Source of the DNA: Octopus vulgaris
Lineage: Eukaryota
DNA length: 64,000 nucleotides
Direction: 5' to 3'
Assembly: GCA_951406725.2 (NCBI GenBank)
Contig: OX597814.1
Location: forward strand, 210,056,001-210,120,000
The position numbers and the translations under genes are program-made. Under the pieces are notes generated by a model, which had not been told where the DNA came from, searched no databases, and saw nothing but the letters and a program-made list of their open reading frames with translations. This document shows positions 5,258 through 50,844 of the stretch, in pieces; position 1 is the first letter of the stretch; each line of letters begins with the position of its first letter.

Positions 5258-5459
5258 TGTTATATTTCGAAATGGTCATTTTGCCAGTTTAGCCAATAAA
5301 AACACACGCACTATATATTTGGTGTTATTTTGCTTCAGTGTTAATTATTTTTTACATTAATGTAAAAAATAAATAACACTGAAGCAAAATAACACCAAAT
5401 ATATAGTGCGTGTGTTTTTATTGGCTAAACTGGCAAAATGACCATTCCGAAATATAACA
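5258..5459. repeat. 202-bp spacer-less palindrome
   Basis: 5258-5358 is the reverse complement of 5359-5459 with 2 mismatches; centre ACATT|AATGT. Confidence 0.95.
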
Positions 5460-5985: not shown

Positions 5986-6857
5986 CACACACACACATAC
6001 ATATATATGGTAAGAGAGAGAGAGAGGGAGAGAGAGAGAGCGAGAGAGAGAAAGGGGGATTTTATTTTACATGAGCAGAAGAAATATTGAAGTTGAAAAT
6101 ATACCGGGAGTCTTTTAGATTTCTTTTATTTTTAAAGACTTGAGCAGTATTAGATTTTTCTGATTTTCAAAAGTTGAGAGAGAAAGACTACGTTGCAATT
6201 CTCTTCGGATTATAGTTTGAAAATCTTCTTGCTTTTATAGACAGAAGATGTCTCAAATAAGAATCTGTTCACCATACAATTTGATTAACAAAGGATGTTC
6301 ACATGATTAAGTTCAGAAAATTTTGCAACTTTCCAGCTACGTCCGTGCGTTAGTGTAATGGGACAATATTTTTGCGCTGAAAATTAAGGCTGACACGGTT
6401 CAGGGAAACATGTCTCATGATGGTCTCAAACAATCAAGGTTCTCTGAATTTTATCTGTCAAATGTAGCAGAGGAAGATTACTTGATTGACTGATATTATG
6501 CGTTGATATAATGTGGCAGTATTGTTTGCGACGAAAATTAAGACTGACACATTTGAGTGAACGTATCTAGCGACAGTCCCAAACGATTAAGATTAATATG
6601 TAAAGTGTTGCAGATTGGACAGGGGTTGTTTGTATTTGTCTACTGAGTGAACACATTAACATATGTGCAAAAAAGAAAAATAAGTAGCAAAACTGCCACT
6701 TTACATTTTCTTCAGTCGATAAAAAGTCAATCCAAAATAACGAAAGAAAGTATATTCATACATCAATACAAACGAAAACTGAATAAAGTGTAAAAAAAGT
6801 GCATTCAACATCAACTACGCACACATAAACACATTCTGCCGCTTGACATGTTGAATA

Positions 6858-15615: not shown

Positions 15616-15700
<85 letters not shown>

Positions 15701-15712
15701 ATATATATATAT

Positions 15713-15784
<72 letters not shown>

Positions 15785-15798
15785 ATATCTATCTATCT
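15616..15798. repeat. (TATC)n microsatellite
   Basis: Direct observation, with a short TA interruption. Confidence 0.97.
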
Positions 15799-15800
15799 GT

Positions 15801-16176
15801 GGAGGCGCCATGTCTCAGTGGTTAGGGCAGCGGACTCGCGGTCATAGGATCGCGGTTTCGATTCCCAGACCGGGCATTGTGAGTGTTTATTGAGCGAAAA
15901 CACCTAAAAGCTCCACGAGGGTCCGGCAGGGGATGGTGGTGATCCCTGCTGTACTCTTTCACCACAACTTTCTCTCACTCTTACTTCCTGTTTCTGTTGT
16001 ACCTGTATTTCAAAGGGCCGGCCTTGTCACTCTCTGTGTCACGCTGAATATCCCCGAGAACTACGTTAAGGGTACACGTGCCTGTGGAGTGCTCAGCCAC
16101 TTACACGATAATTTCACGAGCAGGCTGTTCCGTTGATTCGGATCGACCGGAACCCTCGTCGTCGTAACCGACGGAG
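15801..16176 (+). mobile_element. tRNA-derived SINE family C, tail type 1
   Basis: A-box tgtctcagtgg and B-box gtttcgattcc; about 170-bp head shared with 22404 and 45344; distinct 3' body ending cgtcgtaaccgacggag. Confidence 0.85.
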
Positions 16177-36609: not shown

Positions 36610-36690
36610 AAGATGCAGTGACTTGGCCACATCTGCTGACCCGCCAGCGGGAGGGTGTTACGGCTCAGGGTCGAAACACATGATGATCGT
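36610..36690 (+). repeat. Upstream duplicate of the HERO-like element's 3' UTR segment
   Basis: aagatgcagtgacttggccacatctgctgac...ggctcagggtcgaaacac aligns with 37867-37935. Confidence 0.85.
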
Positions 36691-36924
36691 TTTCAAATTT
36701 ATTCATTATTTACATATTTATACGCATACATACATACGCGAGTATATATATATGTGTGTGTGTGTGTGTGTTTTTACAAATAGATGTAGTTTTAGGTAAA
36801 TATTTATTTGTATATGTACAAATAAACACACACACACATACACATATATATATCCGTTCATATGTACACACACTATATATGCATACGTACATATATGTGA
36901 ACATATAAATATTTGTATATATAC

Positions 36925-38030
36925 ATCCCAAACTCTCTAGAGAAGCGAGGAAGGATGATAGACTCAAAAGGACAGATCCATCGGTGACGACAAGGAATGA
37001 TTTACGGACGCAGAGGCAGCCCCAATCACCCTTAAGTGGAGAGATATTGGGAGTGAAATGTTACTGTGGTAAAAGCTACAAGAATGCAAAAGGGGTCAAT
37101 ATACACCGAACCAAGTCGAACTGTTGGAAGGAAGAGCCACAATTGCAGTTCTTGGTGTGAGAAAAAGTTGAAACATCAATAGTTAGGGAGGTATGGGAAG
37201 TAACATGTCATTGCAGAAAGATCTGCAAGAATGAGAAAGGGCTCAAGATACACCGAGCGAGGTCGGTCTGTGGAAAAGATGGGGCACAGATGCAGCGCAC
37301 AGTCGTATTAACTGGCATGATTCAGAAGAGGTTCAGGCAGGAAGCATCCAACAAAACTAGAAGTCTCTCAGTACCTGTGTCATCTCACGTCCTCAGGAAG
37401 GGCAACACATCCAACACCACACCAGAGAGAGCTTTATCCCAGCCAGCGAAAGAACCAATCAAATGGCCCAAGATCGATGAAATAAAGAAATGACAACAAC
37501 TGCACCAAGGCCTCGACATTATCCTACCATGCTGAAAGAAGGTGGAAGGATGTTTTGCACCAAAAGAAGAACACTTCACAGCCGTTACTCACACTCTCGT
37601 GGGAAGAGGTTTGTGATGAGGCCCATGAACGGATGCGTGCCAGATATGAGAGCCTTCTGAACGAGTGCAGAGAGAAGAGATGGCAGATATGGCTTTTCTC
37701 AGTCGGCTGTAGACGATTCCCTGCTCAGTCGGTATGGAGGATGCTTACAGTAGGTGAAATAAAAGGTAAGGAAAGAAGGGTGGCTATGCGCAGGATGGGT
37801 GAGGCTGCTGCAAGAGGCTCTTGTTGGCTTTGGAACAAGAGAGAAGAGTTAAGCTTGGAGGAAATGAAGATCAGTGACTTGGTCACCTCTGCCGACACAC
37901 CAACGGAAAGGCTCAGGGTCGAAACACCCGATGAATGTTGGATACCGTCTGATGACATCAGTTCCTCCTGGTCAAGGCTCCATTACTTTGGTGAATGGAA
38001 AAAGCACCTCCATATAGGTGTCATTAACAT
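36925..38030 (+). mobile_element. HERO-like RLE non-LTR retrotransposon with the RT region deleted
   Basis: Two N-terminal fingers CYCGKSYKNAKGVNIHRTKSNC and CHCRKICKNEKGLKIHRARSVC, then IKWP...QQLHQGLDIIL joined to the RLE C-terminus LTLSWEEVCDEAHERMRARY...VGCRRFPAQS...AAARGSCWLW, then a 3' UTR. Confidence 0.85.
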
Positions 38031-38339
38031 ACCAACAGAAACTGCATTAATACCGAAACCATATATGTTTTGTATTTTCTATTTCTGTGTGAGCGTGTGG
38101 GGAGGGGCATGCGCATGTGTGCGTGTGTGTATGTGTGTGTATGAGAGTGGGAAAGGCAAGTGCGTGTGTTTGAAATCAGTGAAATATAGTGTTTAAACAT
38201 GAAAGGGTTATGGGGCTCCACAAGATTGGAATAGTAATTCAAGGGGTCCACATGTAAAATACCATTGAAAACCGCTGATTTAAGTATTAACAAATTGTTA
38301 ACAGAACTTGAAAATATGTTTACATTTATTTGCCAACTA

Positions 38340-45042: not shown

Positions 45043-45344
45043 ATCACATCACGTGACCGACCAGACCATCAGATGTTGTTACACATCGCTGGTCACAATG
45101 CGTTCGCATTGTGTTAGCCTTCGAATGACGCCACCCCGCTGGCTAAGCGAGCAGGCCAACAGAAGAAAGATTGGGAGAAAGAGTGGCGAAAGAGAACAGC
45201 AGGGATCAACACCCCCTGCTGGAGCCTCGTGGAGCTTTTAGGTGTTTTCGCTCAATAAACACTCACAACGCCCGGTCTGGGAATCGAAATCGCGATCCTG
45301 CGACCGCGAGTCCGCTGCCCTAACCACTAGGCCATTGCGCCTCC
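45043..45344 (-). mobile_element. tRNA-derived SINE family C, tail type 3
   Basis: Head near-identical to 15801; tail acaatgcgaacgcattgtgaccagcgatgtgtaacaacatctgatggtctggtcggtcacgtgat. Confidence 0.85.
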
Positions 45345-45346
45345 AC

Positions 45347-45509
<163 letters not shown>

Positions 45510-45869
45510 TATATATGCTAAAACGAAAAAATGATTTCACCATTCCATTTCTGTCTGCATTAGCAACAGTTTTAGCTGAGCAATAATACTTTGTTGGGTA
45601 TATAAAATTGTAACTCCATGCATGTATGATATTTTCAGTTACAAATATTTTCGAAAAACTGTCGTATGTGGACTTATTACACTTTTGAAAAATGCTAAAG
45701 CGTTGTGCAACAATTTTCATCCGAAGCTGGAGATACGCTACTTTGGACAAAAAAACTGGTTATTACCAGCAAAATAAAATACTGAAAATAACAAAAAAAC
45801 ACCCAAAAAATGACAAAAATACGCTTTTGGCCATATTTGGACATATGATAGTTTAATATAATAGTAATA

Positions 45870-50378: not shown

Positions 50379-50419
<41 letters not shown>

Positions 50420-50422
<3 letters not shown>

Positions 50423-50844
50423 GCACAACTTCATAAGCCAGCCCCATGCTCAATTCGTCCTGTCGAAAGACCCTTGTCCTACGTCCTGGTTTTGTTTTGT
50501 TGTTTATTTTTTATACTTTATTTTTACCGTTATTGTTTTTACGTTTTTGTATTCTTATTGTTGTCACGTATTCTGTATTTTTGTTCGTGTACTTTGTTCG
50601 TTTTCCGTCCTCGTGTTGTATACATTCGAAGCTTTCTTCCAGGGGATCTAATGCCCTTGGCTTAGATTTCCCGTGGCGGGCTGCCCATATCGGAGCAATC
50701 TCAAGATTAATCAGCCGAAATTGCTAAGATGATCTGGTTCTTGACTGATGACTGAGGGCTTCGAATGTCCCGTCCTGTGGTTCTTGTGTCGTCTCTGTGG
50801 CGTTTCATGTTCTTGTCCATGTCTGTAATTATTTTTACTGTTTA

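Follow-up and report, generated by a model that had tools for sequence, protein, structure and literature searches.

The described systems closest to the element reported here are the type-SGC hammerhead ribozymes, the hammerheads of Penelope-like elements and the 5′ ribozymes of other non-LTR elements. For the first of these, the portions of Eckert et al. 2023 (PMC10085705) considered here take block C as uninterrupted beyond 1-2 nt and report that active type-SGC ribozymes often carry a one-nucleotide insertion at A9/G10.1; the term type-SGC itself was confined to one paper in the open literature searched. For a Penelope-like element, the portions of PMC11167929 used here report that hammerhead cleavage was dispensable for insertion in vitro, that reverse transcription started internally on unprocessed RNA, and that no RNA-seq reads ended at the hammerhead site. 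The HERO clade has been described in PMC4640811, in the consulted passages of which neither a ribozyme nor terminal redundancy is mentioned.

The present study concerns the window, a 64-kb stretch of Octopus vulgaris DNA, and relatives of one element within it. Its main result is that the HERO-type 3′ UTR holds a covarying hammerhead-type core with a stem II strand lying upstream of the cleavage site; from its sequence the core is predicted, and very likely, to self-cleave after H17. The open literature searched (Repbase Reports and most subscription journals lie outside it) contained no link between hammerheads and HERO and no report of this wiring. The link was likewise absent from the parts considered of PMC13725137, PMC4640811, PMC3088659 and PMC7650587, and the word HERO occurred 0 times in the searched main text of two bioRxiv preprints. 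As such, the HERO fold represents a hammerhead variant new to the searched literature, in a clade not known to carry one.

Two ribozyme-like fragments in a decayed retrotransposon

An earlier note on this DNA had proposed that the 3′ UTR of a HERO-like element with a restriction-like endonuclease (RLE) encodes a permuted hammerhead, split between two defective copies at 36644-37970. Direct reading verified all strings named there. The upstream fragment has GGGTG at 36653 and GAAACAC at 36673-36679 and no CTGATGA downstream of them, and the downstream fragment has CCAAC at 37900, GAAACACCC at 37921-37929, GTTGG at 37937 and CCGTCTGATGA at 37945-37955, with an 8-nt gap at the position of the upstream fragment's stem III 5′ strand and UH site. 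The spacing from G12 to C3 was also as claimed, being 28 nt at 37921/37949 and equal to that at 50717/50745. The core parts of the earlier ribozyme model therefore stand as read, and what it had overlooked is stem II, a further helix (P0) and the hairpin between them: in the upstream fragment GACCC at 36638 pairs with GGGTC at 36668, and directly after A9 a P0 helix joins 37857-37869 to 37956-37968 with 11/13 pairs (hand count), which is also present in the MFE fold, a method that cannot represent pseudoknots and was applied solely to view P0 and the hairpin. The fragments differ at 12 of 73 aligned letters (hand count), and a profile built from 40 outside sequences had exactly two matches in the window (nhmmer, E 7.5e-9 downstream and 1.3e-8 upstream); the likeness of the two fragments to a ribozyme is not chance. 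The features of the element are as follows, where L with a number denotes a locus of the metagenomic sample described below and Ph the hairpin.

36610-36686, plus strand: upstream HERO-type 3′ UTR fragment with the 5′ half and G block, without the stem I 3′ strand and CUGAUGA (blastn to L003/L033, 79-85% identity; nhmmer E 1.3e-8)
36615-36637, plus strand: hairpin Ph, weakened, with a self-complementary loop hexamer at 36624-36629, abutting G10.1 (sequence; family hairpin)
36638-36642, plus strand: stem II 5′ strand, beginning with G10.1, upstream of the cleavage site, 5/5 pairs with 36668-36672
36653-36663, plus strand: block S, with the stem III 5′ strand, U16.1 at 36658, H17 at 36659 (predicted cut after H17) and the stem I 5′ strand (by analogy with the hammerhead core)
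36668-36679, plus strand: block G of the upstream fragment, with the stem II 3′ strand, GAAA at 36673-36676 and a truncated stem III 3′ strand
36687-36920, no strand assigned: AT-rich, microsatellite-bearing interval in place of the remaining 3′ UTR and the 5′ UTR of family tandem junctions
36921-37517, plus strand: decayed 5′ part of the ORF, with two C/H zinc-finger-like motifs, stops and frameshifts (translation; blastn/tblastn to L003 and other loci, best E 9e-20)
37518-37586, plus strand: internal deletion junction, about 2.6 kb including the entire reverse transcriptase lost (L003 matches jump from ~3693 to ~6340-6420)
37587-37860, plus strand: C-terminal half of the restriction-like endonuclease domain (protein relatives, see below)
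37857-37869, plus strand: P0 5′ strand of the downstream fragment, with its partner at 37956-37968 directly after A9 (sequence; family test)
37872-37904, plus strand: decayed hairpin Ph, stem II 5′ strand and stem III extension strand of the downstream fragment
37916-37968, plus strand: 3′ half of the downstream fragment, with the stem II 3′ strand, GAAA at 37921, stem III 3′ strand, extension at 37937-37941, stem I 3′ strand, CUGAUGA at 37949-37955 and P0 3′ strand (nhmmer E 7.5e-9)
37969-38031, plus strand: last part of the 3′ UTR, reaching about to where the element stops, without poly(A) (blastn to L033 stops at 38011; other copies diverge at 38031)

In the downstream fragment, the Ph loop hexamer is one change short of a palindrome, the stem II 5′ strand (37894-37898) has one mismatch and is followed by the stem III extension strand (37900-37904), and the cleavage site is deleted near 37908-37912. 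Judging from these sequences, neither window fragment should cut.

The frame ahead of the downstream fragment encodes the C-terminal half of a restriction-like endonuclease, with 472 relatives at E<=0.001 and a best identity of 63%. In long relatives, RVT_1 precedes the RLE stretch that was matched, giving the layout of a single ORF with a reverse transcriptase (RT) and a C-terminal RLE. The window copy keeps its ORF start joined to the RLE half, with no RT match anywhere in the window. Pfam gave no family for the window ORF pieces, and a word-index protein search gave no match among longer proteins. Named relatives (8 proteins checked) came from fishes, amphioxus and bivalves, where the link is by protein alone. 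By eye, the RTs of the relatives P0095 and P0103 were far closer to the HERO-2_DR and HERO-1_BF rows than to the CRE row in the part of the PMC5678591 supplement used; on this likeness, the assignment of the element to the HERO clade is a strong lead. A Penelope-like identity was ruled out by the RLE type of the endonuclease and the absence of any GIY-YIG family among the Pfam matches of 10 relatives.

From the upstream G12 to the start of the ORF the distance is 248 nt, near the 259-328 nt seen in ten family junctions, suggesting that the two fragments are probably two ends of one insertion. The defects of the two copies proposed earlier are real, and these copies may belong to a single insertion: the window element is probably a dead, internally deleted, terminally redundant copy whose middle was replaced by AT-rich sequence. 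It is unlikely that the pieces are instead independent neighbours, a very short 5′-truncated copy beside a deleted long one, a reading that concerns the local arrangement only. The differences between the fragments, the contig depth, which peaks over the 3′ UTR as an abundance of short 3′ copies would produce, and the lack of any 5′-UTR remnant seen in the 36687-36920 interval speak for such neighbours, whereas the shared strand and the G12-to-ORF spacing speak against them.

Further repeats were observed in the window. Between the fragments, 36760-36845 forms an imperfect inverted repeat with microsatellite-flanked AT-rich arms, possibly a small inserted element; a 309-nt sequence occurs twice in opposite orientation (15630-15938 and 45207-45515, 83% alike) as a dispersed repeat; and 5266-5451 is a long, near-perfect, MITE-like inverted repeat. 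Scanning the entire window with Rfam gave only microsatellite-driven matches among the 150 listed of 441, and no ribozyme match was found in the two window stretches tested.

Occurrence of the motif behind HERO-type endonucleases

Metagenomes were scanned with an alignment of 31 among the 150 listed relatives, which yielded 449 pattern matches, 260 of them confirmed, and the best 80 were kept. Loci were selected by the HERO-type endonuclease protein alone, and 64 extended 200 nt or more beyond the match. A descriptor requiring stem III, UH, stem I, GAAA and CUGAnGA in this order (S-G-C), with G17 excluded, was matched in 47 of these 64 loci compared with 2 of 1,280 dinucleotide shuffles, and in neither the 64 reverse complements (0/64) nor the 61 ORF interiors (0/61). 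The profile found 10 further loci, leaving seven detected by neither test: L046 and L055 are decayed versions (by eye), L077 ends early, and L032, L064, L074 and L079 show none. Two of 16 short loci also matched, giving 49 descriptor matches in all, which lie 36-210 nt after the ORF match and form 40 clusters at 80% identity, the clusters being related and coming largely from few assemblies.

These counts bear out the claim of a rearranged hammerhead core in the 3′ UTR of HERO-like RLE elements. The earlier note had made that claim depend on intact copies carrying all three segments together, and they do so in the 47 loci (L012, L024, L028 and L073 are examples of copies intact from P0 to P0) and in contigs of four sequencing runs, none of them recorded as RNA, that contain this stretch. 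In those runs, 38, 5, 37 and 7 contigs, respectively, had a loose end before 37913, and their majority letters supply the stem II strand, the extension strand and the site lost downstream (majority line, agreement 0.68-0.72).

Four loci (L076, L082, L038 and L046) have long 3′ UTRs, in which the motif lies 390-710 nt after the ORF (L038, L076 and L082) or, alternatively, 400-500 nt separate the motif from the next 5′ UTR; L038 and L046 have an altered CUGAnGA. After position 2400, L079 carries a HERO-like element without the motif and with a pentanucleotide repeat tail, possibly a ribozyme-free lineage. In viral contigs, no relative of the element protein was found, and the 2 pattern matches obtained there lacked a HERO protein or convincing stems. 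Among 63 GAAA-CUGAUGA matches in viral contigs, 2 were in S-G-C order and both were without the upstream stem II, giving no sign of the HERO wiring in these contigs.

Fold and covariation

Hammerhead numbering and cleavage chemistry are used here as established. Across the 40 clusters, H17 was U in 15, C in 14 and A in 11, N7 varied freely (U23/C8/G5/A4), and the rest of the core was fixed. Stem II opens with G10.1-C11.1 in 36/40 clusters, a pair outside the descriptor requirements, and A15.1-U16.1 is present in 39/40. The 5′ strand of stem II was located 19-25 nt before U16.1, where all five pairs form in 32/40 clusters compared with 284 of 1,560 cross-pairings, whereas pairing between the strands that follow CUGAnGA and precede GAAA is possible in 4/40 only (cross-pairings 6%). 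Because its stem II partner lies upstream of the cleavage site, the topology is not that of the published SGC type, and a plain type-SGC ribozyme was ruled out. The same upstream strand excludes a degenerate or absent stem II, which had been the first impression from the window. The cyclic order S-C-G of types I, II and III and of the Rfam models was also ruled out, the order being S-G-C and no Rfam hammerhead match being obtained; nor did Rfam find any ribozyme, hammerhead included, in the 10 loci that include 5′ UTRs. Of the permuted hammerhead proposed earlier, the S-G-C core is thus retained and the topology corrected.

Moreover, the bases right after A9 form P0, of at least 9 bp, with a farther-upstream strand in 29/39 clusters compared with 135 of 1,521 cross-pairings; like the upstream stem II strand, P0 was not used in locus selection. 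Between P0 and G10.1, 35/40 clusters have a hairpin of at least 6 bp, and the parts abut, with a spacer of 0 nt between P0 and hairpin in 26/27 and between hairpin and G10.1 in 35/40. The A9-G10.1 link carries two helices and the RNA's own ends. In addition, the strand next after the stem II 5′ strand is a stem III extension that finds its partner in the strand just before the stem I 3′ strand; from its position, this extension may stand in, with other connectivity, for the SGC helix that joins the far ends of stems I and II. The hairpin loop holds a palindromic hexamer in 21/40 clusters (five different hexamers, against an 11% background), and 19/40 loops are without a perfect palindrome.

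In a plain MAFFT alignment, 93.5% of 767 cells in stems I, II, III and the stem III extension were paired, with 211 double changes, a count in which stems I and III were selection criteria and stem II and the extension were not. The proportion was 92-95% for each helix, double changes occurred in 18/20 pairs, none of 500 shuffles reached the observed pairing, and slid registers gave 36-43%. All helices occur together in 26/40 clusters only. The predicted cleavage products are joined by a median of 27 bp, since both halves contribute strands to P0, stem II, the extension and stem III, and they would therefore remain paired.

A second instance of the wiring at 50.7 kb

A second, sequence-unrelated instance of the same wiring was found in the window, as the sole full descriptor match on either strand.

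50622-50768, plus strand: P0 at 50622/50758, hairpin at 50642-50672, stem II 5′ strand at 50679, U16.1 at 50699, GAAA at 50717 and CUGAUGA at 50745

The earlier note had seen the same fold at both places, and the agreement extends to the offsets (20 nt and 28 nt), P0 and the hairpin. The HERO profile had no match to this motif, and its flanks held no recognisable ORF. Whether by sharing or by exchange, as the earlier note suggested, the module may have come to occur in more than one class of retroelement. The surrounding 50400-50830 appears as an element with a U-rich stretch followed by the complete six-helix wiring, and constitutes a separate family.

Element ends and tandem junctions

In comparisons of closely related pairs, genomic 3′ ends lay 42-81 nt beyond C3. 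The suggestion that they might pile up at the predicted UH site was not borne out, and with ends so far past the core, cleavage does not set the genomic 3′ end of the element. No run of 8 A, that is, no poly(A), was found among the motif loci (42 with at least 150 nt after the core). At tandem junctions, the 3′ UTR enters a conserved, hairpin-rich 5′ UTR without a spacer, ~10-24 nt later in most pairs. A new HERO ORF begins downstream in 10/80 loci, and the 5′-UTR signature follows the core in 9/41 loci under a strict pattern. Furthermore, seven of the eight loci that reach their own 5′ UTR have 3′-UTR sequence before it (L003, L024, L029, L040, L044, L071 and L077, by eye), the eighth, L059, having a 5′ end without such a piece; three of these seven junctions are in assembler-closed contigs (L040, L071 and probably L044). 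Positions 1-6800 of L003 contain two near-full-length HERO-like elements head to tail, 69% alike. The L029 contig begins one base into the predicted 3′ product with a piece 92% like its own 3′ UTR, and of the 13 loci whose contigs stop less than 150 nt from the ORF match, L020 ends exactly at the predicted cut and L065 possibly does; these two ends, on contigs that may derive from DNA or from RNA, are only a weak hint of cleavage.

The 5′ UTRs of twelve loci (L007, L011, L012, L014, L015, L026, L028, L029, L044, L054, L056 and L071) repeat a short hairpin with a purine-rich loop three to four times. After the repeats, the same twelve have a conserved GGG-loop-CCC hairpin. This array, which gave no Rfam match, is a candidate protein-binding or promoter element.

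Possible functions of the ribozyme

The best explanation, held tentatively and as somewhat short of probable, is that the ribozyme cuts head-to-tail transcripts into units that are re-closed as circles for more-than-unit reverse transcription, as was proposed for Penelope-like elements in the parts of PMC4209133 considered. It builds on what is seen, namely the core, the six helices with their covariation, the upstream stem II strand, the 3′ ends without poly(A) and the direct junctions, and on cleavage as predicted from them. Cleavage after H17 by ordinary hammerhead chemistry would yield unit-length RNAs from tandem transcripts; the ~27 bp between the halves would hold the 5′-OH start and the cyclic-phosphate end of one unit together while the ribozyme reassembles; and the reassembled ends would be sealed into a circle by the ribozyme or a host ligase. 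Self-complementary hairpin loops could bring two copies together, and target-primed reverse transcription would begin inside the RNA just before the 5′-UTR hairpins and pass one turn, leaving an intact ribozyme in every copy and a 3′-UTR piece ahead of the ORF. Several points weigh against circles: the L003 partners, at 69% likeness, are not expected from one rolling event; three of the seven 5′ junctions are in assembler-closed contigs, and L059 has a 5′ end without a 3′-UTR piece; nearly half of the loops have no perfect palindrome; the Penelope-like element of PMC11167929 inserted without needing its hammerhead; and the strong pairing between the halves would also hinder the strand exchange that the model needs.

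A linear scheme is also conceivable and rather unlikely: the ribozyme would only give the element RNA a defined 5′ end, together with cap-independent translation, from a tandem or host read-through transcript, and the template would remain linear, its own 3′ ribozyme uncut or nicked and still paired, with internal reverse transcription. It is favoured by the insertion of unprocessed Penelope-like RNA with internal initiation (PMC11167929, in the portions used), by the 5′-end role reported for ribozymes of other non-LTR elements (PMC8501958; R2, PMC7650587; likewise in part), by the start of L029 one base into the predicted 3′ product, and by 10 loci whose 5′ UTRs gave no Rfam ribozyme match. 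Nevertheless, with only the 3′ half passed on upstream, a daughter would be unable to cut a second time and the scheme, without fresh tandems, would not renew itself, and the upstream fragment of the window starts ~48 nt before the cut site. More improbable still is a brake on expression, in which the ribozyme cuts its own mRNA in the 3′ UTR, so that ORF and priming end come apart and expression or read-through is restrained, with tandems arising by adjacent insertion or recombination. A 3′-UTR hammerhead that lowers expression is known in a mammalian mRNA, and the short distance of the motif from the ORF match and the divergence of the L003 partners fit such a role; however, the spacer-free 3′UTR-to-5′UTR junctions in many families, the absence of poly(A) and the ~27 bp holding the products together would be left unexplained. 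Very improbable, finally, is a reading without catalysis, in which the fold serves the element protein as a scaffold and the two inserted helices disable the core. Such an insert at A9/G10.1 is without tested precedent in the portions of the literature compared, and PMC10085705, as far as considered, assumes at most 1-2 nt there, yet conservation tracks hammerhead chemistry over 40 divergent clusters, with N7 and H17 variable, A15.1-U16.1 nearly always present and G10.1-C11.1 kept despite strands far apart in sequence.

Cutting and re-closing thus remains the preferred reading. In its widest form, which we consider doubtful, a hammerhead whose wiring is not among the six published permutations, and whose core is opened at A9/G10.1 by a two-helix insert, would serve as a HERO-wide cut-and-reseal device operating through palindromic-loop kissing, tandem cutting, circles and internal priming; HERO would then be the first R2-like clade with Penelope-style more-than-unit replication, and the module would also serve the unrelated 50.7-kb element.

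Significance and comparison with known systems

With this fold comes a ribozyme architecture for which current permutation schemes leave no room and which Rfam models miss, so that in animals a large class of hammerheads in the genome may have escaped counting. Non-circular hammerheads, so far described from environmental RNAs, are thereby tied to a eukaryotic retrotransposon clade, and both the poly(A)-free ends of HERO RNAs and the head-to-tail arrangement of copies receive an explanation that can be tested. This has a bearing on the replication of early-branching LINEs and on RLE elements as tools for RNA-templated insertion, and for anyone wishing to graft whole domains into a hammerhead, A9/G10.1 would be the natural place.

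Compared with the portions of PMC4640811 considered, relatives of the element resemble the HERO clade in their single ORF with N-terminal zinc-finger-like motifs, RT, zinc knuckle and RLE, and the window copy differs in being without the RT. With type-SGC ribozymes (HRIMA-1 and variants, Eckert et al. 2023, PMC10085705, in the parts compared), the HERO form shares the order cleavage site, GAAA, CUGAnGA, a short linker from stem I to stem II, a pseudoknotted core and an insertion point after A9. In contrast to them, its stem II partner lies upstream of the site rather than within 0-2 nt after CUGAnGA, it has two helices at A9/G10.1 where type-SGC has 0-1 nt, and the RNA ends open inside block C. 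In addition, the HERO form occurs in genomic retrotransposons, whereas the type-SGC alignment rows compared were environmental contigs; as three rows of the SGC-variant alignment were covered, it may include a eukaryotic member.

The pseudo-LTR hammerheads of Penelope-like elements, as described in the portions of PMC4209133 and PMC11167929 used, are similar in having a terminal-repeat ribozyme, head-to-tail or partial tandems, a palindromic loop suggesting dimers, a bulge at the stem II 5′ end and internal RT initiation. They are, however, minimal or canonical circular permutations in GIY-YIG elements, whereas the HERO form is six-helix and non-circular, belongs to an RT-RLE element and carries its palindrome on an extra hairpin, not on loop III. 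Likewise, the 5′ ribozymes of non-LTR elements (HDV-like in R2; twister variants in Perere-3, PMC8501958, in part) are self-cleaving RNAs that plausibly free the element from a longer transcript; these belong to other ribozyme classes, and the HERO fold is distinguished from them by its place behind the ORF.
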